A DNA stretch of 64,000 bases from an uncultured Chloroflexia bacterium (GCA_963720965.1 CAVRHD010000007.1:49442-113441); one strand, 5' to 3'; positions 13,854-57,218 are shown, numbered from the stretch's first letter. A program made the numbers and translations. Notes: generated from the sequence alone by a model not told the origin.

Positions 13854-13904
13854 GCCGGGATCGCCAGGTCGGCCGGACCGGGCTCGCCCGCGAGCGGGGC
13901 CTCG

Positions 13905-30001: not shown

Positions 30002-31498
30002 TTGCGGGCGAGAGCCGGACTCATCGCCGCGTCTGGATTGCTCGCGGCATTGTTTGGGTACAGCATCTTCGCTGTTCCCATTGCCGCCGCGTCGCCTGAC
30101 TACAACATCACGGGCACGTGGGATTGTTGTGGTGCTGGTGGCGCAGCCCCGCAGGACTTTGTCATCACCTCCGGATCCGGTTCGCTTGCTGGAACGGGGG
30201 TGCTGCCTTCAGGGGTTGTTTACGCGTCGATTACTGGCAGTGAGAGTGGCGGCGCGGTGACAATCGTGACCACCTATAACAGCTTCGCGCCTGGGTATGT
30301 GGCGACGTTCACTGGGACTGTCTCAGCGGACGGGAGCACGATGTCTGGTACGTGGGTCAGTAACGGAAATCAATCGGGCACCTGGACAGCAACGCGGTCC
30401 GGCCCAACGCCTCCAGTGGCTGGGGCAGCATCTTCTCCAACGACTGATGAAACACCTTCTCCGACAGGAGACGGCGTGCCCGTCTGGGCGATTGCTGCGG
30501 TCGTCGTACTTGGCATCGGTGCGCTCATCGGTGCGACCGTGCTGATAGCGGGCGGGGGTGCGTTCGGTGCCGGAGGCGAGGGCGGCGGCGGTCCAGCCGA
30601 GAGTGGTGCCGGGTCTGCCGGCGAGGGCGGCGGTGGTCCGGCGGGCGAGTTCGGGGCCGGCGGCGAAGGTGGCGGCGGTCCAGCCGAGAGTGGTGCCGGG
30701 TCTGCCGGCGAGGGCGGCGGCGGTCCGGCCGAAGGCGGGGGTGCGTTCGGTGCCGGAGGCGAGGGCGGCGGCGGTCCAGCCGACGGGGGTGCGGGTGCCG
30801 GAGGCGAGGGCGGCGGTGGTCCGGCGACGGCGGGGGCGAGTTCGGTGCCGGCGGCGAGGGCGGCGGCGGTCCGAGCCGAGAGTGGTGCCGGGTCTGCCGG
30901 CGAGGGCGGCGGCGGTCCGGCCGAAGGCGGGGGTGCGTTCGGTGCCGGAGGCGAGGGCGGCGGCGGTCCGGCGGACGGCGGGGGTGCGTTCGGTGCCGGA
31001 GGCGAGGGCGGCGGCGGTCCGGCGGACGGCGGGGGTGCGTTCGGTGCCGGAGGCGAGGGCGGCGGCGGTCCGGCGGACGGCGGGGGTGCGTTCGGTGCCG
31101 GAGGCGAGGGCGGCGGCGGTCCGGCCGACGGCGGGGGTGCGTTCGGTGCCGGAGGCGAGGGCGGCGGCGGTCCGGCCGACGGCGGGGGTGCGTTCGGTGC
31201 CGGAGGCGAGGGCGGCGGCGGTCCGGCCGAAGGCGGGGGTGCGTTCGGTGCCGGAGGCGAGGGCGGCGGTGGTCCGGCGGGCGAGCGGGGCGGCGGCGAA
31301 GGTGGCGGCGGTCCAGCCGAGAGTGGTGCCGGGTCTGCCGGCGAGGGCGGCGGCGGTCCGGCCGACGGCGGTGCGACCTGGGGCGAGGGCGGTGGTGGTC
31401 CCGCGACCGAGGGCGGGGCCGGCGGCGAAGGTGGCGGCGGTCCAGCCGAGAGTGGTGCCTCGGGTGAGATCGGCAGCGGCAGTGGTCCGGACTCCTAG
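30002..31498 (+). CDS. Glycine-rich repeat membrane protein: signal peptide, ~120-aa N-terminal domain, one TM helix, then about 15 copies of a 17-aa [17 protein letters not shown] repeat
   Basis: Intact 498-aa ORF. Signal peptide '[19 protein letters not shown]'. TM '[24 protein letters not shown]'. C-terminal tail is a perfect 51-bp tandem array. Confidence 0.75.
30551..31470 (+). repeat. 51-bp tandem repeat array (unit ggcggcggcggtccggcggacggcgggggtgcgttcggtgccggaggcgag; about 15 copies plus 48-bp variants), coding
   Basis: Direct inspection of lines 30541-31470. Several consecutive copies are 100% identical. Not CRISPR: no unique spacers, and the array is in frame inside a CDS. Confidence 0.9.
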
Positions 31499-31796: not shown

Positions 31797-31872
31797 GCGG
31801 GAGTAACTCAGCTGGCAGAGTGTCTGCTTCCCAAGCAGAATGTCGCGGGTTCGAATCCCGTCTCCCGCTCCA
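31797..31872 (+). tRNA. tRNA-Gly (anticodon CCC), CCA encoded
   Basis: GCGGGAGTAACTCAGCTGGCAGAGTGTCTGCTTCCCAAGCAGAATGTCGCGGGTTCGAATCCCGTCTCCCGCTCCA folds as a canonical cloverleaf: 7-bp acceptor GCGGGAG/CTCCCGC, anticodon stem TCTGC/GCAGA with loop TTCCCAA, T-loop TTCGAAT. Confidence 0.9.
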
Positions 31873-31920
31873 CCTCCCGCTCCAGGTAGCTTTGTTCGAG
31901 GATTGACTCGCCGTGTTGCG

Positions 31921-31939
31921 TGTCATACAGTGTATGACA
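31921..31939 (+). promoter_or_regulatory. Perfect 9-bp inverted repeat TGTCATACA-g-TGTATGACA overlapping the antitoxin start codon; likely autoregulatory operator
   Basis: Palindrome seen directly; RHH antitoxins typically autorepress through such operators. Confidence 0.5.
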
Positions 31940-32190
31940 TGAAGCGATCATCCGCCGTTCTGTCGGTGTCACTACCACCGGAATCGGCCCGGGAATTCGA
32001 GCGTTTGGCCGAACGGGAGGGGCGCAACAAGAGCGAGCTGTTCCGGGAGATGCTGGCCGTCTATCTCACGTACCAGGAAACGCAAACATTCGAATCGCTG
32101 CAGCGATACGGGGCGTCCGCGGCCCGACGCGCCGGCGTACGAGACGAGAGCGACGTCGAGCGTTTGATCCAGGAGTCGCGAGAGCAGTGA
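31939..32190 (+). CDS. Ribbon-helix-helix (CopG/VapB-like) antitoxin
   Basis: 83-aa protein MKRSSAVLSVSLPPESAREFERLAEREGRNKSELFREMLAVYL... with an N-terminal RHH fold signature, directly upstream of a PIN-domain gene. Confidence 0.7.
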   Translation: MKRSSAVLSVSLPPESAREFERLAEREGRNKSELFREMLAVYLTYQETQTFESLQRYGASAARRAGVRDESDVERLIQESREQ

Positions 32191-32242
32191 ACCGCGGGGG
32201 TACCGTAGGTCCCGGTCGGACATCCCCTCGTCGGTCGCTCGG

Positions 32243-32647
32243 GTGAGGGCCATTCTCGACACGAACGTCCTCATTTCGGCCTACGTATTTCCCGGCGGCA
32301 AGCCGGAAGCGGTCTACCGCCTGGCGCTGGAGCGGCGCCTGGAGATCGGGACGTCACTGCCCCTGCTCGCCGAATTCGGACGCGTTCTCGGCCTGAAGTT
32401 CGGCTGGATGCCTGATCGAGTCGAGGCGGCGGTCGCCCAGATGACGCGGATCGCCAGGGTGGTCGAGCCGTCTGAGACGGTTCAGGTGGTCAGGGCAGAT
32501 CCGGACGACGACCGTGTCCTGGAGGCAGCCCGCGCCTTCGGCGCACACGTGATCGTCAGCGGTGACCGGCACCTCCTGGATGTGGGGACGTGGAGTGACA
32601 TCGAGATTGTCTCGCCATCGGAGTTCATGGACCGATGGGGTTCCTGA
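32243..32647 (+). CDS. PIN-domain toxin (VapC-like, TIGR00305-type)
   Basis: 'ILDTNVLISA' N-terminal acidic motif, '...DPDDDRVLEAA...VIVSGDRHLL' typical of PIN nucleases; GTG start; 134 aa. Confidence 0.7.
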   Translation: MRAILDTNVLISAYVFPGGKPEAVYRLALERRLEIGTSLPLLAEFGRVLGLKFGWMPDRVEAAVAQMTRIARVVEPSETVQVVRADPDDDRVLEAARAFGAHVIVSGDRHLLDVGTWSDIEIVSPSEFMDRWGS

Positions 32648-32815
32648 GCGCGCTCCTGGTGAATCTGGGGGTTCAACGCATCATTCGGTGCTCGCCGGCA
32701 ACAGGATTTGGTTGCCCGGCCCGATTGCGGCCGTAGTCATGCTGATTGTGCCGGTCTCGCGAACCCGCTCCGGTGAAGCCCGGGGTATCGTGTCGCCACG
32801 TAGCTGGGGGTTGCG

Positions 32816-33678
32816 ATGTATTCGCGTCGTACGCGCATCCGTTCTGCCGCCGCGAGTCTGGGAGTCGCATTCGCGGTCCTCGCCTTCGGTGTACCCGCTC
32901 AAGCCGCTTCGAACATCACGGTGCCCTCGATCCCGGGCGCTGGCTGGATCCAGGGGCCAGACAACACCGCCGGCCGCACGGCCGTCATCGCCGCCAGCCC
33001 GGTGGCCGGTCTTGGCAAGGACAGCGTCAAGCTGACGAGCACCGGCACGTCCGATGTCGTCGGCATCGGCCGGGTGATCCCCGATCCCGTGGTCGGTCTC
33101 ACCGGTGCCTCATGGATGACGTACGTGGCGGGCAATACCGGTGACACCAACGCCGAGCCCGCCGCCCTCAGGTTCGGGTTGTACCGGACGAGCGGTACGT
33201 CGGTGTTCACGACCCTGGTGGTCGAGCGGTCTCTGAATGCGACGGTGACCCCCGGGGTCTGGCAGACAACGACGATGTCCGACAGTACCGTGGTCTGGCA
33301 GACCAACGCGCTCGGTAACTTCTGCCTCCAGGCAGCGCCATGCACGTTCGGCGATTCAAGACCGAGTACGGAGGGTCTGCCCATTTCACCAGCGTCCAGG
33401 TGGCGGTTGGGCCAGGTACCGGCGCGACCAGCTCGTACGTCGATGGCATCTCCCTGACCCTCGGCGAGGTCCCGGTCACCGAGAGCTGGGACTTCGAGCT
33501 CCCGGCGCAGGCCCCGACCCCGACCCCTAAGCCGACGACGACTCCGCCGGCGACCAGCACTGCCGCGCTGGCGACCGACTCGCGGACGCTCGATGGCGGG
33601 ATCTTGATCATCCTTAGCGTCGTTGGGCTGCTCGCGCTGCTGTCGGTTCGATTGCGCCGATCGGAGTCGACCAGCTGA
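32816..33678 (+). pseudogene. Secreted protein with signal peptide, Thr/Pro-rich linker and C-terminal TM anchor; one frameshift near 33345
   Basis: Signal peptide 'AFAVLAFGVPAQA/AS'. C-terminus 'TPTPKPTTTPPATSTAALATDSRTLDGGILIILSVVGLLALLSVRLRRS' in the 33340..33678 frame (cell-wall sorting-signal-like: hydrophobic stretch then basic tail, but no LPXTG/LAXTG). Confidence 0.55.
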
Positions 33679-33883
33679 ACCCGCCTTCTTGACTCGACTC
33701 TCTCGTCGGAGCCCAGTGCTCGCCAGCGGTACCGGTGCGGGGCGACCGGCGCGGTCATCGGGCGGAGCGAGGCCTCTGGTCTCCGAAGCGCGACGCTCAA
33801 GGGCCTGTCCGAGCCAATCGAGGTCGTGAACGTCGAGTGGCGTTGAGCGATGACCGCGGCGTCGGGCCGCGACTCCCTCGCCC

Positions 33884-35464
33884 TCAGTCCGGAGCGCCTC
33901 GCGGGGGCAGGGAGCGGACGGCTTCGCGCTCGATCGCGAGACCACGCCGGTGGCGCTCGTAGAACTCGGCGAAGCCCTGGACATCTCGCGGGTCGGGCTG
34001 GCGCGGCCGGCCGATGCTCTTGCTGATGTGTCCGTCGAGGTAGTCCGGGAGCGACTGGTCCCGGTCGGCGCGGAGGAGGTAGCCAGCAAGCAGGGCCATT
34101 CCCCACGCCCCACCCTCCCCTGCCGTGGTCGGGATGCTGACTGGGACGTTCAGCGCGGCAGCCATCATCCGCTGCCCGGTGTCGCCGCCCTTGAAGAAGC
34201 CGCCGTGCCCCCGGAGCTCCTCGACGACCACGCCTTCTTCGCCCGTCAGGATGTCCATCCCGGTCCGCAGGGCACACAGCGAGGCAAAGGTGAGCGCCCT
34301 GATCAGGTTTTCGATGGTGAGCCGGCTGTCCGGATTCCGCGCGATCAGCGGCCGGCCTTCAGTGAAGCCAGTCGCATGCTCGCCCGAGACGTAGTTGATC
34401 GCCAGGAGCCCGCCTGCGTCCGGATCGCCCAGGGCGGCCAGGGGCAGGAGCCGGCCGTAGAGCTCGTCGAGCGTCACTTCGGCGCCGAGCACCTTGGCCG
34501 CCTGCCCGAAGACCGCGATCCACGCGTCGAGGTCCGAAGAGCCGTTATTCGAATGGACCATCGCCACCGGCTTCGCGTCGGGCGTGACCACGACGTCGAT
34601 CGCCTCGTGGACCCGGCCGAGGCTCCGCTCGAGGACGAACATGGCGAAGACCGACGTGCCCGCCGAAACGTTGCCGGAGCGCGGTCGGACCGCGTTCGTG
34701 GCGACCATCCCGGTCCCCGCGTCGCCTTCCGGCGGGCACAACGGGATGCCTGGCTGGAGTCGGCCCTGCGAGTCGAGCAACGTCGATCCGGCTTCGCTCA
34801 GGGTTCCGGCCGAACGCCCGGCCGGCAGGACCGAAGGCAGGATGTCCCTAAGCTGCCAGGCCAGCCTGCGGGAGGCGATCAGGGCGTCAAAGACGGCGAT
34901 CCGGGCAGTGTCCCAGTCGCCGGTAAGCGGATCGATCGGGAACATGCCCGAGGCCTCGCCCACGCCCACGACATGCTCGCCGGTCAGCAGCCCGTGAACG
35001 TAACCGGCCAGGGTGGTGAGCCGGGCGATCCGGGCAACGTGGGCCTGGCCCTCGAGGATCGACTGGTACAGGTGGGCGATGCTCCAGCGCTGGGGCACGC
35101 CGAAGTCCAGCGCGGCCGTCAGTTCGGCACAGGCCTGCCCGGTGTTCGTGTTGCGCCACGTCCGGAACGGCACGAGGAGCTTGCCGGCCGCATCCAGGGC
35201 CAGATAGCCGTGCATCATCCCGCTGATCCCGATGGCGGCGACCCGCTCCAGCCCCGTCCCATGGCGCACCTGAACGTCCTCGGCAAGCGCGGCAAACGCG
35301 TCGGCCAGGCCGGTCCGAACGTCCGCCATGTCGTAGGTCCACAACCCGTCGCGGAGCTGGTTCTCCCAGGCATGGGCGCCTGAGGCCAGCGGCGTCGAGT
35401 CGGGCGCGATCAGCGAGGCCTTGATCCGGGTTGAACCCAGCTCGATCCCGAGGATCGCCTGACC
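33884..35464 (-). CDS. araB: FGGY-family carbohydrate kinase, probable L-ribulokinase
   Basis: FGGY motifs '...AIGISGMMHGYLALD...', 'INYVSGEHATGF', 'HGGFFKGG'. The conserved N-terminal 'ILGIELGSTRIKASL' lies in frame upstream of the ORF-track start (35344, TTG) with no canonical start codon before araD's stop, so the true start (~35464) is uncertain or affected by an error. Confidence 0.6.
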   Translation of the reverse strand, partial: GQAILGIELGSTRIKASLIAPDSTPLASGAHAWENQLRDGLWTYDMADVRTGLADAFAALAEDVQVRHGTGLERVAAIGISGMMHGYLALDAAGKLLVPFRTWRNTNTGQACAELTAALDFGVPQRWSIAHLYQSILEGQAHVARIARLTTLAGYVHGLLTGEHVVGVGEASGMFPIDPLTGDWDTARIAVFDALIASRRLAWQLRDILPSVLPAGRSAGTLSEAGSTLLDSQGRLQPGIPLCPPEGDAGTGMVATNAVRPRSGNVSAGTSVFAMFVLERSLGRVHEAIDVVVTPDAKPVAMVHSNNGSSDLDAWIAVFGQAAKVLGAEVTLDELYGRLLPLAALGDPDAGGLLAINYVSGEHATGFTEGRPLIARNPDSRLTIENLIRALTFASLCALRTGMDILTGEEGVVVEELRGHGGFFKGGDTGQRMMAAALNVPVSIPTTAGEGGAWGMALLAGYLLRADRDQSLPDYLDGHISKSIGRPRQPDPRDVQGFAEFYERHRRGLAIEREAVRSLPPRGAPD

Positions 35465-35484
35465 CGATTGGATCAGCCCGGCGC

Positions 35485-36216
35485 TCAGCGGTTCTTCTGC
35501 CCGTAATACGCGGCCGGGCCGTGCTTGCGCTGGTGGTGCTTCTCGGCCAGGAACGAAGGGAGCTCAGGGGCGTCTGGATTCAGGCCAAGGGTCTGGATCG
35601 CCATCAGGGCGACCGTCTCGAGGAGGATCGCGTGGTCCGCGGCCTCGGCTGCGCTCCGGCCCCAGGTGAACGGCCCATGCGACGCGACGAGCACGCCCGG
35701 CATCTCGTCCGCCCGAAGCCCGAGGCTGGCGAGCGTGTCCACGATCACGGCGCCCGTCTCGGCCTCGTAGCTGCCGTCGACTTCGGCGGGCGTCAGCTGG
35801 CGGGTGACCGGGATCGGGCCGTGGAAGTGATCGGCGTGGGTCGTGCCGAGGGGCGGGATCGAGCGGCCGGCCTGGGCCCAGGCGCTGGCCGCGCTCGAAT
35901 GGGTATGGACGACGCCGCCGATCGTGCCAAGGTCGCGGTACAGGCGGAGATGCGTCGGGGTGTCCGAGGAGGGCCGGGCATCCCCGTCGAGGACGCTGCC
36001 GTCCGCCAGGGAGACAACGACGAGCCCCTCGGCCCGAAGCTCGCCGTAGGGCACGCCGCTCGGCTTGATGATCAGGATGCCGGCGTCGCGATCCGCTCCG
36101 CTCGCATTGCCGAAGGTCAGCCGAACCAGGCCGGCCTCGACCAGGGCCAGGTTCGCTCGAAGGACCTCCTGGCGCAGGTCCGGGAACGACAGTCCGTGAC
36201 GGCCGGTCACAGCCAC
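35485..36216 (-). CDS. araD: L-ribulose-5-phosphate 4-epimerase (class II aldolase fold)
   Basis: 243 aa; 'LVEAGLVRLTFGNASGADRDAGILIIKPSGVPYGEL', 'GGVVHTHSSAASAWAQAG', 'THADHFHGPIPVT'. GTG start with GGGAG RBS overlapping the araA stop. Confidence 0.85.
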   Translation of the reverse strand: MAVTGRHGLSFPDLRQEVLRANLALVEAGLVRLTFGNASGADRDAGILIIKPSGVPYGELRAEGLVVVSLADGSVLDGDARPSSDTPTHLRLYRDLGTIGGVVHTHSSAASAWAQAGRSIPPLGTTHADHFHGPIPVTRQLTPAEVDGSYEAETGAVIVDTLASLGLRADEMPGVLVASHGPFTWGRSAAEAADHAILLETVALMAIQTLGLNPDAPELPSFLAEKHHQRKHGPAAYYGQKNR

Positions 36217-36222
36217 GGCTCC

Positions 36223-37728
36223 CTAAAGCCCGCGGGCAAGGCGGTAGTACACCGAGTTCCAGCGGAGCTCCCGGCTGAACTCCGGGATCGTGGTCCGCGC
36301 CCCGATCGCGAGGAACTCGAGCCCGGCGATCTCGGCGAAGTCGGCCAGCGGCTCGAGCCCGACCGCCCGGCTCAGGACCGTGTGGTGCGAGCCGCCGGCC
36401 ATCAGCCAGGCCTCGGCCGCCGTGACCAGGCCCGGGCGTGGCTGCCAGACCGCCCGGCCAACCGGCAGGCGCGGCATCGGCTCGTCCGGCGGGACGAGGT
36501 CAACCTCGTTGGCCAGGAGCCGGAACCGGTCGCCCATGTCCATCAGGGCCACGATCACGGCCGGTCCGGTGCCTGCATCGAAGACGAGCCGAACCGGATC
36601 GTGCCGGCCGCCGATCGAGAGAGGATGAATCTCGCATGAGACCGTTTGATCGGCGATCGTCGGGCAGACCTCGAGCATGTGGGCGCCGAGGACCTTCGGC
36701 CCGGCCGGATCGAGGTGATACGTGTAGTCCTCCATGAACGACGTCCCACCCGGCAGCCCCCGGGCCATCGTCTTGACCAGGCGGACCATGATCGCCGTCT
36801 TCCAATCGCCCTCGGCGCCAAAGCCAAAGCCCTCTGCCATCAGGCGCTGACAGGCAATGCCGGGCAGCTGCCGGAGCCCGTCGAGGTTCTCGAACGTGTC
36901 GGTGAAGGCCGTGCAGCCGGTCGCCCCCAGGAATCCGCGCAAAGCGGCCTCGATCCGCGCGGCTTCGCGCAGGGAGTCATGGTCGGTGCCTCCGGCGAGC
37001 AGGCTCGGGGCAACCCGATAGCTCGATCCATACTCCTCGACCAGGCGATCGACCTCGGCCTCGGCCACCGCCTGGACGGCGTCGCCGAGCTCGCTCACGC
37101 TGTAGCCGTTGATCGAGGCGCCGAGCCGGATCTGGGCCTCGACCTTGTCGCCCTCGGTCACTGCGACATCGCGCATGTTGTCGCCGAAGCGCGCGACCTT
37201 GAGGCCGTGTGCGTCGCGCCAGGCGCAGGCGGCCCGGGTCCACCAGCCAATTCGGTCCTGGACGGCCGGATCGGACCAATGACCGGCCACCGTCTTGCGG
37301 GCGGTCCCAACTCGGTCCTCGATGTGGCCGAACTCGCGGTCGCCGTGGGCGGCCTGGTTCAGGTTCATGAAGTTCATGTCGATCTCGGCCCAGGGGAGAT
37401 CGCGGTTGAACTGGGTGTGCAGGTGCAGGAGCGGCTTCTGCAGCGCTTGTAGGCCGCCGATCCACATCCGGGCCGGCGAGAACGTGTGCATCCAGGCGAT
37501 CACCCCGACGCATTCGTCCGAGGCGCTGGCCGCCCGGCAGGCGGCCGCGATGCTCTCGGGCGACTTGACGATCGGCTTGAACACGACCCGGACGGGGATC
37601 GAGTCCGAGCTGTCCAGGGCGCCCGCGATCACGCCCGCATTGGCGGCGACCTGGCGCAGGACCTCGTCGCCATACAGGTCCTGGCTGCCGGTCAGGAACC
37701 AGACCTCGAACTCGCCCAGCGGCTTCAT
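36223..37728 (-). CDS. araA: L-arabinose isomerase
   Basis: 501 aa intact; '[14 protein letters not shown]' N-terminus, '[11 protein letters not shown]', 'MEDYTYH' typical AraA motifs. ATG start overlaps the upstream permease stop (ATGA). Confidence 0.85.
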
Positions 37729-38564
37729 CCCTTGATCGCCCCGGACATGAAGCCGCGGACGTACTGGCCCTGGAGGGCGAAGAAGAGGATCAGGCAGGGC
37801 AGCGCCATGACCACGACCCCGGCCTCGAGCGAGCCGTAGTCGATCACGCCCATCGTCTGCTGGCGGAGGCTCGTGATCGCCAGCGACAGCGGTGCCTTGC
37901 TCGAGCTGCTGATCAGGATCAGGGGTGTGATGAAGTCGTTCCAGGCGGCCAGGAAGGCGAACAGGGCGACCGTCACGATGCCCGGCCGGACCGAGGGCAG
38001 CATCACCCTCCGAAACACTCCGAACGTGCCGGCGCCATCCACCTGGGCCGCGTCCTCCAGCTCCCTCGGTACCGCTTCGATCGAGATTCGCATCATGAAC
38101 GTTGCGAATGGCAGCTGGAACATCGTCATGACCAGGGCCAGGCCGATCAGCGAGTCATTCAGCCCGATCACTTTGAGCAGGACGAACAACGGGATCAGCA
38201 GGGTCGCGTACGGGACCATCAGGATCCCGAGGGTTACCAGGAACAGGACGTCCTTGCCCGGAAAACTGAACCGGGCAAAGCCGTAGCCGCCAAGCAACGA
38301 CACCGACAGGGTGAAGACCACCGTCGCGACCGAGATGACGATGCTGTTGAACAGGTACTGGGGCAACCCGTCGGCGTAGTTCATCAACCGGGCGTAGTTG
38401 CCCAGGCCGATCCCCGTTGGCTGGCCGGAGCCCGGCTGGCCGGAGACCGAGGCGAACGCAGCCCAGATCAGCGGGAACAGGAACAGGATCGCCAGGCCAC
38501 CAGTCAGGACGTAGAACGAGGTCCGGCTCAGGAAGGCCGGGACGCGCGGCGGCCGCGAGATCAT
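37725..38564 (-). CDS. Carbohydrate ABC transporter permease (MalG-like)
   Basis: 6-TM permease with an EAA loop; start ATG at 38564 overlaps the stop of the upstream permease. Confidence 0.75.
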
Positions 38565-38565
38565 G

Positions 38566-39510
38566 TCAGCCTGCCTCAGCCCGGCGCAGGGCCCGGAACT
38601 GGCCACCGTTCAGGACAAGCAGGACGAGCAGGACCACGATCGAGAGGGCCGCTGCGGTGCCCAGGTTCTCGCGCTGGAACGCCTCGCGGTAGATCAGCTG
38701 GACGACCGTGATCGTCGAGTTGTCCGGACCGCCCTTGGTAAGGATGTAGAACTGATCGAAAGCCAGCAGGGACCCGGTGATGCACAGGATCAGGGCCAGG
38801 GCCAGCGACCGGCGCAGGAGCGGCAGGGTCACGTAGCGGAAGGCGGCCCAGCTCGAGGCGCCGTCGATCGCCGCTGCTTCGGTCAGGTCTCGCGGGATGG
38901 CCTGCAGGCCGACGAGCAGGATGAGCATGTAGAACCCGGCGAACTTCCAGACCACCAGGAAGGTCGTCGACAGGAGAGCGCTCAGCGGATCGCCCAGGAA
39001 TTCGATCGGGCTCGAGGTAACGCCCATCGCCTGGAGGATCGGGTTGATCGGTCCGATGCTCGGCGAGTACAGGCCCCAGAACAGCAGGGAGGCCGAGGCA
39101 AGACCCATCGCGCTCGGCAGCAGGAACGAAGTTCGCAGGAATCCCCGCCACTTGCCGCCGCGATCGATCAACAGGGCCAGGCCCAGGCCCAGCCCGATCA
39201 GGCAGATCGTGACGAGCACGGTGTACTCGATCGTGAACCCGACGGCCGGCCAGAACAGCGAGTTCGTCGAGATCGCGCTGTAGTTGGCCGGGAAGTTCAC
39301 CCCCTGGGCGCCGCCCAGGAGGGGCCAGCGGGTGATCGACATACGGCCGACCAGGACGAGCGGGGCGATGAAGAAGACGACGGTGAACAGGAACGTCGGC
39401 GCGACGTAGAGCAAGCCGATCAGCTGGCGCCGTCGGCGCTGGGACAGGTCACGCCGGCTGCGGCGGCGGACCGAACCGGTAGGCGGGGCGATCGATGACG
39501 CGGTGGTCAT
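38566..39510 (-). CDS. Carbohydrate ABC transporter permease (MalF/UgpA-like)
   Basis: 314 aa, N-terminal basic cytoplasmic segment then TM helices, EAA loop 'TEAAAIDGASSW'. Confidence 0.75.
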   Translation of the reverse strand: MTTASSIAPPTGSVRRRSRRDLSQRRRRQLIGLLYVAPTFLFTVVFFIAPLVLVGRMSITRWPLLGGAQGVNFPANYSAISTNSLFWPAVGFTIEYTVLVTICLIGLGLGLALLIDRGGKWRGFLRTSFLLPSAMGLASASLLFWGLYSPSIGPINPILQAMGVTSSPIEFLGDPLSALLSTTFLVVWKFAGFYMLILLVGLQAIPRDLTEAAAIDGASSWAAFRYVTLPLLRRSLALALILCITGSLLAFDQFYILTKGGPDNSTITVVQLIYREAFQRENLGTAAALSIVVLLVLLVLNGGQFRALRRAEAG

Positions 39511-39617
39511 TGCGAAAGCGGCTCTCCCTGCCGGTTCAACAGCTCGCGTGGGGCGGCTTCGGACGGCCGGGCCGCCCCACGCTGTGTACAGCTACCTTGG
39601 CAGAAACGGGTGTGCGC

Positions 39618-40976
39618 TTATTGGCCGACCAACGAGGCGGTGATCGCGTCGTTGTCCTTGTCGATCTGGGCCGAGGAGGCCCCATTGAAGACGGCGTCCC
39701 GGGTCAGGACGAGCCACGGCCCGTTCGGGTCGTTGAACGTCTGGCCGAAGTTCTTGGCCAGGGGTGTCTGGCCCTTCGAGGCAACCTGGTTCACGATGAC
39801 GACCCGTGGGTCGGCCGCGGAGTACTTGTTGTTGGCCAGGTCCGAACGGGCCACGATGTTGCCACCCTTGGCCACGATCTCGACCTGGGCATAGTCGCCG
39901 AGCGTCCAGGCCAGGAAGTTCCAGGCCTGCTGGCTGACCTTGCTGTTGGCCGTGATCCCGACCGCGTCGCCACCGACGAAGGTCGACTGGCCGCCGTTCA
40001 GGCCGCCGATCGGCGCCACGCCATAGTTGACCGTCGACGGGATCGAGCTGAGGGCGCTGCCCGGGAAGGGCATGATCCCGATGTTGCCCTTCGGAAAGAA
40101 GCTGGTCCAGGTCGGGCCCGACTCGGTCTTCGTGCCCGTCGCGACGATCCCGTCCTTGACCTCGCCGGCGAAGATCGCGTAGACGGACTTCGCCTCGTCG
40201 CTGTTCAGCATCGAGGCCGTGCCGTCGGCGTTCATGACCTGCGAACCGTCGGCCCAGATGCTCGGCCACCAGGTAAAGACCTGGCAGCCGCCGCAGGCGC
40301 CGCCGAAGAACGTACCGCTGACTCCGCCGCCGAGCTTCTGGATCGCCCGGGCATCGGTGTCGTAGTCCTTGAGGGTCGCCGGCGGCGTGTTCGGATCTAG
40401 CCCGGCCTTCGTGAACAGGTCCTTGTTATAGACCCAGACCGAGAGGTCCATGATGAATGGGACGCCGTACTCCTTGCCGCCTGTGGTCGAGGCCGCGATC
40501 GGGCCTTGCGCCAGGGTGCTCGCGAACGGCAGCGCGCTGATGTCGCTGGTGATGTCGGTGAACAGGCCCTGGGAGGTCCAGTTCGGCATGAACACCACGT
40601 CGCCCGAGATGATGTCGGGCAGCGAACCGGCGCCGGCCGCGGCCCCGACCTTGGTCTGCATGTCGTCGGTCGGCACGATCGTCAGATCGACCTGGTTCTT
40701 GTGGGTCGCGTTATAGGCGGCCACGAGCTCCTGTGCCTGTGTCTGGGTGGCGGCTCGCGTCCACATCGTGATCTTGCTGCCGTCGTCGATACCCGCCGAG
40801 AACGAACTCGGCGCTGGCGACCCGGCCGCGCTCGATGGTGCCGATGACGCCGGCGGTGCGGCCGTTGCTGCTGCAGTCGGAGCCGCGGTGGGGGCCGGCG
40901 TGGCCGACCCCGAGCAGCCGACCAGCGAGACAACGGCCAGTGTCGCCAGGGTGGTCATCCCCAAGCGGTGCCTCAT
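39618..40976 (-). CDS. Sugar ABC transporter substrate-binding lipoprotein (family 1)
   Basis: ATG at 40976 with GGAGCAAGGG RBS; signal peptide and lipobox 'LAVVSLVGCSGS'; Ala/Pro linker; 453 aa. The ORF-track extension to 42131 is antisense to the GH127 gene and rejected. Confidence 0.75.
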   Translation of the reverse strand: MRHRLGMTTLATLAVVSLVGCSGSATPAPTAAPTAAATAAPPASSAPSSAAGSPAPSSFSAGIDDGSKITMWTRAATQTQAQELVAAYNATHKNQVDLTIVPTDDMQTKVGAAAGAGSLPDIISGDVVFMPNWTSQGLFTDITSDISALPFASTLAQGPIAASTTGGKEYGVPFIMDLSVWVYNKDLFTKAGLDPNTPPATLKDYDTDARAIQKLGGGVSGTFFGGACGGCQVFTWWPSIWADGSQVMNADGTASMLNSDEAKSVYAIFAGEVKDGIVATGTKTESGPTWTSFFPKGNIGIMPFPGSALSSIPSTVNYGVAPIGGLNGGQSTFVGGDAVGITANSKVSQQAWNFLAWTLGDYAQVEIVAKGGNIVARSDLANNKYSAADPRVVIVNQVASKGQTPLAKNFGQTFNDPNGPWLVLTRDAVFNGASSAQIDKDNDAITASLVGQ

Positions 40977-41246
40977 CCCTTGCTCCTCCAGTACAACCGG
41001 CCGGCGAGGATTCCCGGCCGTCCAATACGTCGGGTGCCTGCCCTTGGCCCGCGCCAGACTACCATGAGCAATCCTGTGCGTACAATCGTATTCATTCGCC
41101 CGGGCAGATCGGCGAAACCTGCACGCAATCGTATGCGCGCGTACGTTACTCTGTGCGCCAACACGGTGGGCCCTCCAGGCGCCTCGTGAGGCCGTCATGA
41201 CCGGCCGGGCTGCGGGCCGGCTCGGGCAGAACTGAGGATTGAACAG

Positions 41247-43202
41247 GTGGCATCTCCGGCCAGGGTTCCAGTCGCAACCGTTGCCCCGACCGACCATGCC
41301 CTGAGCGCGCTCAGGCCGCTTCAGGCCGGCGATGCCACGATCAGCGGCGGCTTCTGGGCGACCCGCCAGCGCCTGAATCGCGAGCGCTCCCTGGCCCACG
41401 GCTTCGGCGAGCTGGAGCGAGCCGGCAATCTGAACAACCTGCGCCTGGCCGCCGGGGCGAGCGGAACCTACCGGGCCGTCGGCCTGGCCAGCGGCCTCGT
41501 CTTTCCATTTCTCGACACCGACGTCTACAAGTGGCTCGAGGCGGTCGCCTGGGAGCTCGGCCGCGCTCCGTCGGCCGACCTGAGCCGGGCTGCCGACGAG
41601 GCCATCACGGCCGTGGCCGGGGCCCAGCGCGCGGACGGCTATCTCAACAGCTACGTCCAGGTCCTGGGCGAGACGAAGCCCTACGCGGACCTCCAGTGGG
41701 GCCACGAGCTGTACTCGTACGGCCATCTGACCCAGGCGGCCGTCGCCTGGCACTCGGTCCTGGGCGACGACCGGCTCCTGAACGTCGCGCTCCGGGCGAT
41801 CGAGTCGGTCGAGCGCGAGTTCGGCTCGGCCGATCGGCCGCCCCTCGACGGTCATCCCGTGTTCGAGACGGCCCTGGTCGAGCTCTACCGAGCGATCGGT
41901 GACGAGCGGTTCCTGGACCTGGCTGCCCGGATGATCGACCAGCGCGGCCACGGGCTGATCGGCGAGGGTCGCTTCGGCTCGGCCTACTGGCAGGACCTGG
42001 AACCGGTCCATGAGGCACGCTCGGTCGCCGGACACGCCGTCCGCCAGCTGTACCTGGACGCCGGAGCCGTGGACGTGGCCGCCGAGGTCGGCGATCAGCG
42101 CCTTCTCGACGCCGTCCAGCGGCGCTGGCAAGACCTCGTCGCGACCCGGACGTATCTCACCGGCGGGATGGGCAGCCGGGCCCGCGACGAGGCGTTCGGC
42201 GACCCGTTCGAGCTACCGCCCGATCAGGCCTACGCCGAGACCTGCGCGGGCGTGGCCAGCGTGATGCTGGCCTGGCGCCTCCTCCTGGCAACAGGCGATC
42301 CGGCTTGTGCCGACCTGATCGAGCGAACGATCTTCAACGGAGTCCTGGCTGGCTCGTCGCTCGAGGGGACCGAGTTCTTCTACACGAACCCGCTCCAGCG
42401 CCGGACCGAGCGAGCCGCCGCCGAGCCGGGTTCTGGTCGTCGAGCGCGCTGGCAGGCCTGCGCCTGCTGTCCACCAAACCTGATGCGCCTGCTCAGTTCG
42501 TGGGAGCAGTACCTCGCCACGAGCGATCGGGGCGGGGTCCAGATCCATCAGTACGCGACGGGCGAAGTCCGGGCAACGGTCGGAGGCGGGGTCGTTCGGG
42601 TAGCCGTCGAGACCGACTACCCGTGGGATGGGCGCGTCGTCGTCCGGATCGTCGAGAGTCCGTCCGAGCCGTGGTCGCTGTCCCTGAGGGTCCCCGGCTG
42701 GTGCCAGTCGGCCTCCGTCCGAGTTAACTCAGGCGAGAGCCAGGCCGGCCACGGGGGGACTCGCTGGGCCTCGCCGACCCAGGCCTGGCGCCGGGGCGAC
42801 GAGGTCGTGCTCACGATGGACATGCCGGTCCGGGTTACCCAGCCCGATCCGCGGATCGACGAGATCCGGGGCTGCCTCGCTTTGGAGCGCGGCCCGCTCG
42901 TCTACTGCATCGAGAGCGCCGACCTGCCCGACGGCGTGATCCTCGAGGACGTCGTCCTCGAACCGACCGTGCGGCCGCGCACGACCGCCCGGCCCGACAT
43001 CGCCGAGTCGATGGTCGGCTTGATCGTGCCCGCGATCCATCGACCAACGCCGAATCCGACCGAGTGGCCCTACCGGCGCAGCGGTGGTGGCGGCCATCGC
43101 GCGGTCGAGGCCCGGCCGATCGACGCCGGGGCGATCCCCTACTTCGCCTGGGCGAACCGCGCGGACGGCGCAATGCGAGTGTGGATACCCGTCCGGGCCT
43201 GA
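41247..43202 (+). CDS. Glycoside hydrolase family 127 (beta-L-arabinofuranosidase HypBA1-like, DUF1680)
   Basis: 651 aa with the GH127 Cys-rich zinc motif 'CACCPPN' and 'ETCA'. GTG start with GAGGA RBS. Confidence 0.75.
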   Translation: MASPARVPVATVAPTDHALSALRPLQAGDATISGGFWATRQRLNRERSLAHGFGELERAGNLNNLRLAAGASGTYRAVGLASGLVFPFLDTDVYKWLEAVAWELGRAPSADLSRAADEAITAVAGAQRADGYLNSYVQVLGETKPYADLQWGHELYSYGHLTQAAVAWHSVLGDDRLLNVALRAIESVEREFGSADRPPLDGHPVFETALVELYRAIGDERFLDLAARMIDQRGHGLIGEGRFGSAYWQDLEPVHEARSVAGHAVRQLYLDAGAVDVAAEVGDQRLLDAVQRRWQDLVATRTYLTGGMGSRARDEAFGDPFELPPDQAYAETCAGVASVMLAWRLLLATGDPACADLIERTIFNGVLAGSSLEGTEFFYTNPLQRRTERAAAEPGSGRRARWQACACCPPNLMRLLSSWEQYLATSDRGGVQIHQYATGEVRATVGGGVVRVAVETDYPWDGRVVVRIVESPSEPWSLSLRVPGWCQSASVRVNSGESQAGHGGTRWASPTQAWRRGDEVVLTMDMPVRVTQPDPRIDEIRGCLALERGPLVYCIESADLPDGVILEDVVLEPTVRPRTTARPDIAESMVGLIVPAIHRPTPNPTEWPYRRSGGGGHRAVEARPIDAGAIPYFAWANRADGAMRVWIPVRA

Positions 43203-43245
43203 TCGCTGAGGGCCGCGCGAACCTTCCGGAGACGGCTGCGCGGCG

Positions 43246-44265
43246 CTAGGTGGTCCGGCGGACCCAGGACGCGGTCGAATTGCGAACGACCAGGGTCGGC
43301 TCGAACATCGTGACCCGCGGCTCGCGCGGCAGCGACGGATCCCGGGCAAACTCGATCGCCTGCCGAACTCCCTCACCCACGATCTCGGTGATCGGCATGC
43401 GCATCGTCGTCAGCGCGGGAACGGTGTAGGCGGCCAGCTGGAGGTCGTCGAAGCCCACGACCGACAGGTCGTTCGGAATCGACAACCCGCGCAGGGAGGC
43501 AGCATGGAGCGCCCCGAGAGCGACGTAGTCGGTCGAGGTCGCGATCGCCGTCGGCGGTTCGGACAGCTCGAGCAGGGCCCGAAGGGCCGCCTCGCCGCCC
43601 GCCAGACTGTTCGGGACACGCTGAACGTAGCCCTCGGGTAGCCGGCCGAAACGGACCCGCATGAACTCGACGAAGGCGTCCTCGCGATGCGGGTTGCCGC
43701 CGGGCAGCTCCGCGCTGACGAACGCGATCCGCTCGTGGCCCAGGCCGATCAGGTGCTCGAGGCCGGCCATCACGCCAGCCCGGTCGTCACTTTCCACGGT
43801 CGGGAAGTCGATCGGGCTCGAACCCTGCCACAGGGCGACAACAGGCACGGGCGTTTCGCGCAGGTCTTCGAGCAGGCGCGGCTGATGCTGGATATCGCCG
43901 AGCAGGACGATCGCGTCGCAATGCCGGGGCTCGAGGACGGCCGTCAGGGCGAGCGCTTCGTCGAGCCGTCCGTGGGCGTGGCCGAGCACGATGTTGTAGC
44001 CCCGTGACATGGCCTCGACGACAAGGGTGGCGATCGCCGAGGCGAAGAAAGGGTCGCTGAAGTCACGCACGACGGCGCCGACGAGCATCGTCGGGGCGCC
44101 GCGCAGGCCGCGGGCAAACGGATTCGGTCGGTAGTGCAGCCGCTCGGCGGCGGCCCGCACCCGCTCGCGTGTCTCGGGCGCGATGGGCACCCGGGTCGGG
44201 GCGTCGTTGAGGACCCGCGAAACGGTGCTCTGGGAGACACCGGCGAGTTCGGCAATATCGCGCAT
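43246..44265 (-). CDS. LacI-family transcriptional regulator
   Basis: 'MRDIAELAGVSQSTVSRVLN' HTH N-terminus followed by a periplasmic-binding-protein-like sugar-binding domain. ATG at 44265; the ORF-track start at 44415 is too early. Confidence 0.8.
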   Translation of the reverse strand: MRDIAELAGVSQSTVSRVLNDAPTRVPIAPETRERVRAAAERLHYRPNPFARGLRGAPTMLVGAVVRDFSDPFFASAIATLVVEAMSRGYNIVLGHAHGRLDEALALTAVLEPRHCDAIVLLGDIQHQPRLLEDLRETPVPVVALWQGSSPIDFPTVESDDRAGVMAGLEHLIGLGHERIAFVSAELPGGNPHREDAFVEFMRVRFGRLPEGYVQRVPNSLAGGEAALRALLELSEPPTAIATSTDYVALGALHAASLRGLSIPNDLSVVGFDDLQLAAYTVPALTTMRMPITEIVGEGVRQAIEFARDPSLPREPRVTMFEPTLVVRNSTASWVRRTT

Positions 44266-44428
44266 CGTCGTGATCTGGACAACCTGCCGGAGTCCAGGTG
44301 GGCGGGCGGCTGGCTCCTGTGGCGAGTCCCTGGGCATCGGCATCCGTCCCGTGCGAATCTTCGCTGGATCGTAGCACGCTGCCATGCACTCATACGTATT
44401 CATGAGGGCTGCCAACGCGTAGCCCGTC

Positions 44429-44479
44429 GGCTTCCGTGCCAGGAAGCACGTCGCGGGGTCGAATTCCGTCTCCCGCGCC
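44429..44479 (+). repeat. tRNA-Gly 3'-half-like direct repeat (27/30 nt identical to the T-arm/acceptor 3' end of the tRNA-Gly at 31797..31872); candidate attR or tRNA remnant
   Basis: GTCGCGGGGTCGAATTCCGTCTCCCGCGCC against tRNA GTCGCGGGTTCGAATCCCGTCTCCCGCTCC, preceded by a degenerate anticodon-arm-like hairpin GCTTCC-GTGCCA-GGAAGC. No matching 5' acceptor strand, so not a complete tRNA. Confidence 0.55.
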
Positions 44480-44511
44480 GCGTCGGACCGGGCTGCGGCG
44501 CGATCGGCCGG

Positions 44512-44961
44512 CTAGCTCGGTTCCTCGTCCGCGAGGAGATCCTCTTCGTCGTCCTCCGACGGGTCGAGCCTGCGCCGGCTCAATCGCGGCATCGCTTCCC
44601 GAGTGTCGAACATCATCCGCTCGGCGTCCTCGTCCAGAGCGTGCAGCGATCTGGCCAGCGTCCGGTTGATGATCAGGGTAAGCCGCTCGTCGGTGACCAC
44701 CTCGGTCCCTCGCCGATACGAAATCTGGGCCTTGGTGAGAGGCACCCAGGGCGGCCGGCGAACGACCATGACGAGCGGGTTCGAGGCCGGCGTGCCGTGG
44801 ATCTCGCCGATCACCTCGTACGGCCCGAGCTCGGCGATGACCTCGATCGTGCGGGTCCGGATCCGGCGAGTCGGGTCGCCCCGGATGCCCGTCGCCACCA
44901 CCGCATACAGCTCGTTGAGCGGTACACCCAGGTCCGGGTGGCTGACGACCCGGTCGTCCAC
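44512..44961 (-). CDS. Hypothetical protein with acidic C-terminal tail
   Basis: 149-aa ORF ending '...DPSEDDEEDLLADEEPS'. No recognisable family from sequence alone. Confidence 0.4.
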   Translation of the reverse strand: MDDRVVSHPDLGVPLNELYAVVATGIRGDPTRRIRTRTIEVIAELGPYEVIGEIHGTPASNPLVMVVRRPPWVPLTKAQISYRRGTEVVTDERLTLIINRTLARSLHALDEDAERMMFDTREAMPRLSRRRLDPSEDDEEDLLADEEPS

Positions 44962-45233
44962 GATGCTCTCGATCCGGGCATCGCTGATCTGGAGCTCAGC
45001 TGAGTGCGTTGAGCAGGTCGCTCAGCCGACCGTCGCCGGGCTCCAGGCGACCGAACAGGCGGCAGTCGACCGCGTACGCGTTGAACTCGATCACCCGTCC
45101 ATCCTAGTCCCGCCAGCCAACCCGCCGAACACGCCGCGCAACGGCCCAGGGTGCCGCTCATAGGCTCAGCCGCGCATGGCTCGCGTGACAGCCCGACACG
45201 ATCGCGGAGCGCTCGAACAGTTATACTCGCGGT

Positions 45234-45473
45234 ATGAAGACGGCTGTCTCCGTTCCCGACGACCTGTTCGCTCAGGTCGACCGTCTCGCCCGACGCTCGC
45301 GCAGGTCCCGCAGCGAGCTCTACAGTGCCGCGCTACGGGAGTACGTCGCCCGGCACGCGCCCGATGAGGTGACGGCGGGACTCGATCGCGTCATCTCGGA
45401 GGTCGGCCAGCCAGACGGTGACCAGTTCATTGCCGCGGCCGCCCAGGGGACTCTCGGCTCGACCGAGTGGTGA
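45234..45473 (+). CDS. Ribbon-helix-helix antitoxin (MazE/CopG-like)
   Basis: 79 aa '[38 protein letters not shown]'; stop overlaps the toxin start (GTGA). -10-like TTATACT upstream. Confidence 0.7.
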   Translation: MKTAVSVPDDLFAQVDRLARRSRRSRSELYSAALREYVARHAPDEVTAGLDRVISEVGQPDGDQFIAAAAQGTLGSTEW

Positions 45474-45814
45474 TCGCCCAGGGCGAGGTGTGGTGGGCCG
45501 ACCTCGGGGAGCCGGCTGGGTCAGGGCCCGGGTTCAGGCGGCCGGTGGTCGTAGTCCAGGGTGACGCCTTCAACCGCAGCTCACTTCGCACGGTCGTATG
45601 CGTCAGCCTGACGAGCAACGTCCATTGGGCGGATGCTCCGGGCAACGTGCTCCTGCTCGCTCGTGCAACCGGCCTGCCGAGGGACTCCGTGGCCAACGTG
45701 TCGCAGCTCGTGAAGCTCGACCGGGACGCCCTCACCGAGCGCACCGGCGCGCTGTCAGCATCGAGCCTGGAGCTCGTGCTGGCCGGGATCGACGTAGTGC
45801 TCGGGCGTTCGTGA
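45467..45814 (+). CDS. MazF/PemK-family mRNA interferase toxin
   Basis: 'GEVWWADLGEP...RPVVVVQ' N-terminal SH3-like barrel signature of PemK/MazF; 115 aa. Confidence 0.7.
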   Translation: MVIAQGEVWWADLGEPAGSGPGFRRPVVVVQGDAFNRSSLRTVVCVSLTSNVHWADAPGNVLLLARATGLPRDSVANVSQLVKLDRDALTERTGALSASSLELVLAGIDVVLGRS

Positions 45815-45875
45815 GACACGACCTACGAGTTGGTGACCGTGCGCGGCTGACAGCGGTCATCCATAGAATTCGCGG

Positions 45876-46902
45876 ATGAAGAAGATCGGGTTCCTCTCCT
45901 TCGGCCACTGGTCGGACATCACCCTACTCGCAGGTGCGCTCCGGCGTCGGACGCGCTCATCCAGTCGATCGAGCTGGCGGAGGCGGTCGAGGACCTGGGA
46001 GCCGACGGCGCCTACTTCCGGGTCCATCACTTCGCCCGGCAGCTGGCGTCGCCGTTCCCGCTCCTCGCGGCGATCGGCGCGCGGACCAAGCGGATCGAGA
46101 TCGGGACGGCCGTCATCGACATGCGCTACGAGAACCCGCTGTACATGGTCGAGGACGCCGGCGCGGCCGACCTCATCGCCGGCGGCCGCCTGCAGCTCGG
46201 CATCAGCCGCGGCTCACCCGAGCAGGTCATCGACGGCTTCCGCTACTTCGGGTACGCGCCGGCCGAGGGGGCAGACCGACGCCGACATGGCCCGCGAGCA
46301 CACCGAGGTCTTCCTGCAGGCCCTGACTGGAGCCGGCTTCGCCGCAGCCGAACCCCACGCCGATGTTCGCGAACCCGCCCGGGCTGCTTCGCCCGGAGCC
46401 GCACTCGGCCGGGCTGCGCGACCGGATCTGGTGGGGAGCCGGGTCACGCGCGACGGCCCAATGGACTGGCCAGCAGGGCATGAACCTGATGTCGTCGACG
46501 CTCCTGACCGAGGATGCCGGCGTGCCGTTCCACGAGCTCCAGGCGGAGCAGATCCGCCTGTTCCGGGAGGCGTGGGCGGCGGCTGGGCATCAGCGCGAGC
46601 CGCGGGTCTCGGTCAGCCGGAGCATCTTCGCCCTGGTCGACGACCGGGATCGCGCCTACTTCGGTCACGGCAACCAGGACGCGGACCAGGTCGGCTACAT
46701 CGACGCCCAGACCAAGGCGATCTTCGGGCGTTCGTACGCCGCGGAGCCGGACGTCCTGGTCAGGGAGCTCGCCGGGGACACAGCGATCCAGGCGGCGGAC
46801 ACGATCCTGCTGACCGTCCCGAACCAGCTCGGCGTCGAGTACAACGCCCACGCGATCGAGAGCATCCTCAAGTTCGTCGCGCCGGAGCTCGGCTGGCGAT
46901 AG
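45876..46902 (+). pseudogene. LLM-class (luciferase-like) flavin/F420-dependent oxidoreductase, about 3 frameshifts
   Basis: 'MKKIGFLSFGHW' N-terminus. 'ELAEAVEDLGADGAYFRVHHF', 'RIEIGTAVIDMRYENPLYMVEDAGAADLIAGGRLQLGISRGSPE', 'GTAQWTGQQGMNLMSSTLL' and the C-terminus '...AHAIESILKFVAPELGWR' lie in different frames. Confidence 0.65.
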
Positions 46903-46949
46903 GACGGCTTGGCCGTCTCGGCCCAGGCCAAGGCGCGTAGGCTGCCGAC

Positions 46950-49752: not shown

Positions 49753-49790
49753 GCGACCTCGTCCATCGTTAAGCCGCTGCCCAAGCAGCT

Positions 49791-49820
49791 ATTTCATGTT
49801 AGGCTTCACTAATATGAAAT
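49791..49820 (+). promoter_or_regulatory. Inverted repeat ATTTCAT-N16-ATGAAAT spanning the TetR start codons; candidate TetR operator
   Basis: Perfect 7-bp arms seen directly; AT-rich in a ~70% GC context. Confidence 0.45.
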
Positions 49821-50401: not shown

Positions 50402-50402
50402 C

Positions 50403-51566: not shown

Positions 51567-51608
51567 CCCACGGGCGGGCGGCCGGCACATTGCCACGGCC
51601 GCACTTCT

Positions 51609-57204: not shown

Positions 57205-57218
57205 GGTCGGGTCCGGTC

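Follow-up and report, generated by a model that had tools for sequence, protein, structure and literature searches.

In tRNA and transfer-messenger RNA (tmRNA) gene islands of the Islander type, a regenerated target gene and a displaced fragment of it mark the island ends (PMC4383910). Within the Chloroflexota, Dehalococcoides carries islands downstream of the ssrA gene, 15 of which lack an integration module and were read as cis-mobilizable or fixed elements (PMC3146451). In additive flexible genomic islands, cassettes build up beside tRNAs, and tRNA direct repeats stand at the cassette ends (PMC7771536). A related situation is that of tycheposons in tandem or degenerate form (bioRxiv 10.1101/2020.12.28.424599). 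Here, we describe an island in a stretch of 64,000 nucleotides (the window) from an uncultured Chloroflexia bacterium (GCA_963720965.1, CAVRHD010000007.1:49442-113441). It extends from position 31873 to about 44479, between an intact tRNA-Gly(CCC) gene and a decayed copy of the 3' part of the same gene, and it carries genes for the use of arabinose. This interval is very probably an insertion into the tRNA-Gly(CCC) gene by site-specific recombination.

The interval resembles the Islander islands in several respects. An intact tRNA gene stands at one end and, at the opposite end, a same-strand 3' fragment that begins with the anticodon arm; related genomes have the same site without the block, whose cargo consists of accessory metabolic genes. 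It differs from them in that an integrase gene is defining there, whereas none was detected here in a screen of the window run without a positive control. In addition, the fragment is decayed (84% identity and an indel), and the interval shows no compositional contrast. As in a cis-mobilizable element (CIME), both tRNA-derived ends are present and neither a recombinase nor a conjugation gene was found in the interval. It is thus a tRNA-gene island without an integrase, similar to a CIME or to an additive flexible island. With the Dehalococcoides islands it shares the phylum, the position downstream of a single small-RNA gene and the direct repeats of the 3' end of that gene. A sizeable share of those islands is likewise without an integration module, and some were proposed to be fixed. 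However, those islands target a tmRNA gene, their repeat is a 20-bp segment of the T-loop and their recombinase is of the CcrB-like serine type. In the window, tRNA-Gly(CCC) is the target, a repeat of about 46-50 nt starts from the anticodon loop and no recombinase of any type was found. In additive flexible islands and tycheposon remnants, new cassettes displace older ones, degenerate partial tRNAs mark old events and the cargo often consists of nutrient-uptake and catabolic genes, all of which is similar to the present case. On the other hand, these systems are known from marine Actinomarinales, Alteromonas and Prochlorococcus, and tycheposons possess their own tyrosine recombinase and replication genes.

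The host is an uncultured, Limnocylindria-like soil bacterium of the Chloroflexota. Its AraA is identical to that encoded on a 460-kb contig of the European Nucleotide Archive (ENA), ERZ25039552:contig_40150 (L001), and the closest AraA relatives, from metagenome-assembled genomes (MAGs) labelled Chloroflexia or Candidatus Limnocylindrales, are 75% identical. The two ends of the interval and the gene that adjoins its right end are as follows.

31797..31872, + strand: intact tRNA-Gly(CCC) gene (ARAGORN; Infernal RF00005, 68.2 bits against a gathering score of 29)
44426..44479, + strand: decayed copy of tRNA-Gly(CCC) positions 26-75, an attR-like scar (alignments, nhmmer)
44512..45094, - strand: conserved hypothetical protein of 193 aa (the anchor gene), frameshifted in the window near 45004

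The tRNA-Gly(CCC) gene is the sole tRNA in the window according to ARAGORN and the sole Rfam match in the 64 kb. It is identical at 76/76 positions to the gene of a related contig (L084, ERZ25039458:contig_82006), and the genes of two further relatives (L086 and L216) also read as identical. The 30-mer GTCGCGGGTTCGAATCCCGTCTCCCGCTCC, which corresponds to tRNA positions 46-75, is matched on the same strand at 44450-44479 with 27/30 identities. No other place in the window matches it at up to 3 mismatches, and no match appeared in 100 dinucleotide-preserving shuffles. The three mismatches are at T54 (T->G), at C61 (C->T) and at the discriminator base (T->G). This 30-nt match had been reported in the first-pass annotation and was reproduced, although its length had been underestimated. 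The homology extends in the 5' direction, so that 44426-44479 aligns with tRNA positions 26-75, about 50 nt from the anticodon arm onwards, with 42/50 positions identical by hand count in the alignments. The copy contains a 4-nt insertion (44435-44438) inside the former anticodon loop. Upstream of 44426, the alignment gave no resemblance to tRNA positions 1-25, and the absence of a 5' half, also noted earlier, was therefore confirmed.

The displaced copy does not score as a tRNA with ARAGORN, or with Rfam and RF00005 at E up to 10 in the region 44200-44700. Neither an independent tRNA-Gly gene nor a full-length pseudogene was found at 44.45 kb, where no cloverleaf and no covariance-model score were obtained; the first-pass annotation had named a functional tRNA-Gly(GCC) there as one of the findings that would speak against an island. 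The copy was picked up by nhmmer (E = 0.0011), and the same fragment was detected in L001 and in a second contig of the same species (L091), which are all the same-species assemblies that span this position. In L001, the region is 99.3% identical to the window over 141 nt. Between 31873 and 44425, no further tRNA-derived relic was seen, and the next best nhmmer match had an E value of 7.

The same site without the island is found in relatives. In a Ca. Limnocylindrales MAG (L086, GCA_035308745.1, DATGGC010000335.1) and in an independent ENA assembly (L087), the tRNA-Gly(CCC) gene is complete and identical and converges on the 193-aa gene, with 14 nt between its end and the stop codon of the latter. 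In L216 (Joint Genome Institute, JGI 3300044821), the same tRNA ends 7 nt from this stop codon. In the window, the 193-aa gene lies 33 nt beyond the displaced copy. The arabinose block is absent at the tRNA/193-aa site in L086/L087 and L216, and these three assemblies, representing two lineages, read as empty sites. In a three-way alignment, L086 presents the tRNA and the anchor gene (attB pattern), the left end of the window presents the tRNA and then unrelated sequence (attL pattern), and the right end presents unrelated sequence, the repeat and then the anchor gene (attR pattern). L086 also keeps the DUF1905 and DUF2652 genes of the further right flank of the window. The proposal of the first-pass annotation that the repeat is the att-site scar of an island is supported by the empty sites and by this alignment. 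The hypothetical gene which it had placed outside the right boundary corresponds to the conserved 193-aa protein.

The arabinose genes were followed separately. A search with AraA retrieved 80 related genome loci, which are too distant for an empty-site comparison. No tRNA was located within 10 kb of the ara clusters in the 15 closest Chloroflexota loci, and their flanks showed no synteny with those of the window. A fragment search detected no tRNA-Gly fragment near any of the 80 loci. Since ara clusters elsewhere are accompanied neither by a tRNA (15 loci) nor by a tRNA-Gly fragment (80 loci), the repeat is not part of the ara cluster. The contents of the interval are the following.

31939..32190, + strand: RHH (CopG-type) antitoxin, 83 aa (Pfam RHH_1, E = 2.3e-10)
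32243..32647, + strand: PIN_3-family toxin, 134 aa (Pfam PIN_3, E = 2.6e-16)
32816..33678, + strand: hypothetical protein, 287 aa, frameshift-split in the window and a single gene in L001
33884..35344, - strand: araB-like ribulokinase of the FGGY family (Pfam FGGY_N, FGGY_C)
35485..36216, - strand: araD, L-ribulose-5-phosphate 4-epimerase, class II aldolase fold (Pfam Aldolase_II, E = 6.9e-45)
36223..37728, - strand: araA, L-arabinose isomerase (Pfam AraA_N, AraA_central, Arabinose_Iso_C)
37725-38564 and 38566-39510, - strand: two ABC-transporter permeases (Pfam BPD_transp_1 in both; L001 gene calls)
39618..40976, - strand: extracellular solute-binding protein of the ABC importer (Pfam SBP_bac_1, SBP_bac_8; 452-aa gene call in L001)
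41084..41095, no strand assigned: operator-like motif AATCGTATTCAT in the divergent promoter region of the solute-binding protein and GH127 genes, putative regulatory role
41247..43202, + strand: GH127 beta-L-arabinofuranosidase (Pfam GH127 catalytic, middle and C-terminal domains)
43246..44338, - strand: LacI-family regulator, 363 aa (Pfam LacI, Peripla_BP_3; L001 and L091 gene calls)
44392..44403, no strand assigned: operator-like motif, second occurrence (ATACGTATTCAT), in front of the LacI gene, putative regulatory role

The cargo therefore consists of toxin-antitoxin, sugar catabolism, transport and regulator genes together with one hypothetical gene, and Pfam accounts for every open reading frame (ORF) of the interval except the latter. 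Neither phage structural genes nor conjugation genes are among them, in contrast to a prophage or an integrative and conjugative element. The RHH-PIN pair, araA-araD-araB, the ABC transporter, GH127 and LacI had all been named in the first-pass annotation, and Pfam agrees. In contrast, its secreted protein and its C-terminal remnant of a cyclase domain (33340-33678) proved to be one frameshifted protein of 287 aa without a Pfam match. Both window ORFs map by tblastn onto the 287-aa protein of L001, which is intact. The start codon of the RHH antitoxin was set from the 83-aa gene call of L001 and the reading frame. The PIN_3 toxin has homologues with 80-88% identity in more than 100 protein clusters, some of which are named after Thermomicrobiales or Saccharimonadia as their source; this toxin-antitoxin module is unusually conserved and widely spread. 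The araB-like ribulokinase is 71% identical over 479 aa to its homologue in another related locus (L009).

The motif AWWCGTATTCAT has just 2 occurrences in the window, and 2 matches were obtained in 0/100 shuffles. It is a candidate operator of the LacI-family regulator of the island. Because it is present only in the divergent promoter of the solute-binding protein and GH127 genes and upstream of the LacI gene, one self-regulated unit is suggested. From the second motif to the tRNA-like segment, which starts at 44426, the distance is 22 nt, and this suggests that the regulatory DNA of the putative unit reaches as far as the scar.

The following course of events is proposed. The DNA from 31873 to about 44479 would have entered the chromosome by site-specific recombination at tRNA-Gly(CCC), with the crossover at the anticodon loop or immediately 5' of it. 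A copy of the tRNA segment that reaches from the anticodon loop to CCA would have come in with this DNA. The gene would thereby have been regenerated at the left end, so that 31797..31872 would be an attL-like end whose 3' 46 nt come from the inserted DNA. The original 3' part would have been displaced by 12.6 kb and would still stand beside its old neighbour, the 193-aa gene. Later, the displaced copy would have gained about 16% substitutions and the 4-nt insertion in the would-be crossover region, and the block would have become fixed with the recombinase gene gone. The cargo brought in this way would be the RHH-PIN pair, one hypothetical gene and a self-contained beta-L-arabinofuranoside/L-arabinose regulon (GH127, the ABC importer, AraA, AraD, AraB and the LacI-type repressor). 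That all of this arrived as a single 12.6-kb event is about as likely as not. Mycobacteriophage L5 (tRNA-Gly, common core of about 43 bp) and the pSAM2-type actinomycete elements belong to the anticodon-loop crossover class, and an identity block from the anticodon loop to the 3' end is typical of tyrosine integrases of the L5 and pSAM2 types. The recombinase was most likely a tyrosine integrase of this class, provided by the element or in trans.

The tRNA genes of the window, L084, L086 and L216 are 100% identical, and at insertion the displaced copy must therefore have matched this sequence. The copy now differs at 8/50 positions and has an indel in the presumed crossover region. These changes would also argue against att sites that are still usable by an integrase in trans. 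Four assemblies of the species, from three samples, carry the island. The decayed repeat, the native-like composition, the presence in four assemblies and the lack of internal relics together point to an old and now fixed insertion, as had been suggested in the first-pass annotation. The donor was probably related and compositionally similar. The locus would be an example of how an uncultured and poorly studied soil lineage gained a complete regulon for the use of plant polysaccharides (arabinose and arabinofuranosides), and a precisely bounded case of an island that lost its mobility. The island itself is of an ordinary, well-known kind and brings no new principle. A more unusual lead is given by the module arrays at the same tRNA in relatives.

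In L084, further pieces of the same tRNA-Gly(CCC) come after the gene on its own strand (array region 6500-12700). Those at 11.6 and 10.7 kb are partial fragments, and those at 9.7, 8.4 and 6.6 kb are 46-nt copies, exact or nearly so, of tRNA positions 31-76. These pieces divide modules of 1-3 kb that contain HAD-like, GNAT, AMP-binding and hypothetical proteins and the 193-aa gene. Metagenomes were scanned with a 42-nt core in which tRNA position 30 was forced to differ from the real tRNA. Displaced tRNA-Gly(CCC) copies were obtained on at least 120 metagenomic contigs (array loci L092-L171). Two or more same-strand copies are present in 29/81 loci, with a spacing of 0.2-4.9 kb. The modules hold 1-4 genes without orientation bias (26 forward and 33 reverse), and homologous modules recur in differing orders across contigs. 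The cargo recognised by Pfam includes TetR regulators, methyltransferases, alpha/beta hydrolases, GGDEF proteins, cyclase regulators and sugar clusters. From our own reading of the translated sequences, KatG is presumably present as well, among others. The Pfam/PHROGs scan covered 139 ORFs from half of the metagenomic loci and listed the 25 most frequent families, so that singletons could be missed. No recombinase was detected in about 0.55 Mb of array loci by phmmer and motifs, a screen of moderate sensitivity without a positive control. The tRNA-Gly(CCC) gene is a hot spot of recombination and gene exchange in this clade, which is useful for reading pangenome variation in these abundant soil bacteria.

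In the retrieved loci, most displaced copies are accompanied by a conserved arm of about 70 nt directly on their 5' side, with the elements CGACACCCTAAC...TTCGCTCGCC...CACGCTCGTGC...CTCACGAGGTCAGGA, and by a GACACCCTAAC-like motif about 30 nt on their 3' side. RNAalifold gave no conserved fold in the arm on either strand, and an explanation of the arm as an attC-like site or a small RNA was rejected on this ground. The repeats match no Rfam family. A second, unrelated 5'-flank family (…CCGGGCCG…GACGGTCCC directly before CTTCCCAAGC) was seen in L102, L113, L126, L128, L145 and L163. Since this unrelated flank precedes the same tRNA core, at least two element families appear to use the site. In L114 (2229-2330) and L142, a further short duplicate from the T-loop to CCA (TCCACCTTCTTG GTTCGAATCCCGTCTCCCGCTCCA CCTTCTTG) follows directly after the displaced copy and looks like the scar of another event with a crossover in the T-loop. 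Scans of viral contigs with the 42-mer core and the arm pattern gave no match. The 30-mer matched only a phage tRNA array with tRNA-Gly(TCC), which was set aside as irrelevant.

The arrays of the relatives, and these only, are similar to chromosomal integrons in having one fixed entry site, short tandem modules of 1-4 genes, a conserved site-like sequence at each module end and no recombinase inside the modules. They differ from integrons in that no intI-like gene stands beside the entry site, the site is tRNA-derived, the gene orientation is unbiased and a conserved attC-like hairpin is missing from the repeat. They differ from tycheposons by the conserved arm before each copy and by the lack of a detected recombinase in the array loci screened. 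We put forward, tentatively and with considerable doubt, that the window island may be a large, decayed member of an integrase-less module system that enters at tRNA-Gly(CCC) and is reshuffled in trans by a recombinase encoded elsewhere. In such a system, the module end would consist of the arm of about 70 nt and the 46-nt tRNA copy from the anticodon loop to CCA. It would work in an integron-like manner with a tRNA-derived duplex site and no orientation constraint. If true, the conserved-arm arrays would represent an integron-like capture system acting in trans.

Several observations weigh against the insertion into tRNA-Gly(CCC) as described above, or against its details. First, a screen of the window for an integrase, an excisionase or any other recombinase detected none, as had been stated earlier. 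This screen consisted of phmmer with three seed proteins (L5 Int, lambda Int and Bxb1 Int; E up to 1), which returned no tyrosine integrase or serine recombinase, and of a search that found no box-II or resolvase sequence motifs, and it was run without a positive control. Second, the change of composition or codon usage for which the first-pass annotation had suggested looking gave no signal. In GC content, in GC content at third codon positions (GC3) and in tetranucleotide usage, the island cannot be told apart from the remaining window. The tetranucleotide correlation of the island with the remainder was r = 0.989, within a window-wide range of 0.972-0.995. Third, the window shows no detectable counterpart of the conserved arms that flank most of the relatives' copies. 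Profiles of 53 arms and of 32 downstream flanks, which recover all copies of L084, gave no match at E < 10 at 44340-44430 or at 31873-31960. A resemblance to the conserved 5' arm noticed by eye before the window repeat was not supported by this profile search. The armless island may either belong to a different element family or be too decayed to tell. Fourth, the window and the empty-site genomes lack conservation on the left side of the tRNA, and their anchor proteins are only about 84% identical. Finally, in the two nearest relatives among those sampled, L219 (93%) and L220 (89%), neither a tRNA nor a clear repeat adjoins the anchor gene, and any dating of the event is tentative for this reason. 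Other genes stand 3' of the anchor in these two loci, which have a stop-adjacent spacer of about 30 nt in common with the window and L084.

Four other explanations were weighed. The island could be composite, having grown by several small insertions, one after another, at the tRNA or through homologous exchange at a later time, with the internal boundaries erased and the outermost, oldest scar left. Arrays of 0.2-4.9 kb modules with 1-4 genes at the same tRNA in relatives, in different orders in different contigs, are in line with such growth. So is the RHH-PIN pair, which is promiscuous and 80-88% identical across distant taxa, while the ara genes are not. However, there is no tRNA-derived relic inside 31873-44425 (next best nhmmer E = 7), and the ara genes, the transporter, GH127 and LacI also occur together in other Limnocylindria-like genomes. 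We consider a composite origin possible, if on the unlikely side, and it would alter the number of events rather than the nature of the feature.

Alternatively, the ara block could be ancestral at the tRNA, and the repeat, the 193-aa gene and the rest could have come to lie beside it when an older island array was rearranged in an unrelated event. The 193-aa gene is certainly found in quite different contexts (L083, L085, L089, L219 and L220), is itself flanked by tRNA fragments in L084, and is followed on its right in the window by a second variable stretch without repeats. This course is nevertheless improbable. An ara cluster stands beside a tRNA in 0/15 Chloroflexota loci and a tRNA-Gly fragment near 0/80 ara loci, the tRNA/193-aa adjacency in two lineages parallels the repeat/193-aa adjacency of the window, and two events are needed where one suffices.

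Still less probable, to a degree that makes it hard to sustain, is a decayed second tandem tRNA-Gly gene (e.g. GCC) at 44.45 kb, with the intervening genes being ordinary chromosome. A GCC triplet does lie in a hairpin (gcttcc/ggaagc) at the place of the anticodon loop, and tRNA-Gly isoacceptors are often alike in their T-arm and acceptor sequences, so that likeness in these parts is a point in its favour. On the other side, a 5' half has left no trace, the searches at E up to 10 gave no tRNA score, and the homology begins at the anticodon arm, as it does in the exact repeats of L084 and in about 100 metagenomic copies. Moreover, L086 and L216 have tRNA-Gly(CCC) itself beside the 193-aa gene and no second tRNA. 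Chance similarity of the two sites is practically negligible, given the 0 matches in 100 shuffles, the homology that runs a further 20 nt and our own estimate of about 1e-8 for a 30-mer with up to 3 mismatches in 128 kb.

Apart from this interval, the window contains the following features.

45100-52260: second variable stretch, from the anchor gene to the DUF1905/DUF2652 genes
46950-49752: 957-aa cyclase regulator, frameshift-split
52264-53540, right flank: DUF1905 and DUF2652 genes
12803-14564 and 23096-30088: further window genes that are frameshift-split relative to near-identical assemblies

The second variable stretch contains an RHH-MazF pair, the 957-aa cyclase-AAA regulator, a TetR-like gene and one luciferase-like candidate protein, whose counterparts in L001 and L091 have a weak Bac_luciferase match in Pfam. 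In L086, one 103-aa gene takes the place of this stretch, which in the window is not bordered by tRNA-derived repeats. Among the window genes are three adenylate/guanylate-cyclase regulators that are paralogous and contain an AAA domain (19091-22984, 46950-49752 and 53673-56990), two of them with TPR repeats confirmed by Pfam, and there are two DUF2652 genes (52863-53573 and 56997-58313). The cyclase-regulator and DUF2652 families are frequent cargo of the tRNA-Gly modules in relatives. At 58688-58727, a weak nhmmer match (E = 0.022) to the GACACCCTAAC-type downstream-arm profile was obtained with no tRNA fragment nearby, and it is probably due to chance.

The window is 98.8% identical to L001, yet the alignment has 43 gap openings over 17 kb. 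Frameshifts split several window genes, among them the 193-aa, 287-aa and 957-aa genes, but not their counterparts in other assemblies. They probably reflect indel errors of long-read sequencing, in either assembly, rather than real pseudogenes. Comparison of the window with relatives by tblastx gave high-GC noise alone and was replaced by tblastn with called proteins. Just upstream of the tRNA, the segment 30550-31500 is tandemly repetitive, with 81% GC and a strong G skew. It codes for the low-complexity tail, (G)GEGGGGPA(D/E)GGGAFGA, of a 498-aa protein with an N-terminal hydrophobic segment, and its repeat number appears to be different in L001.

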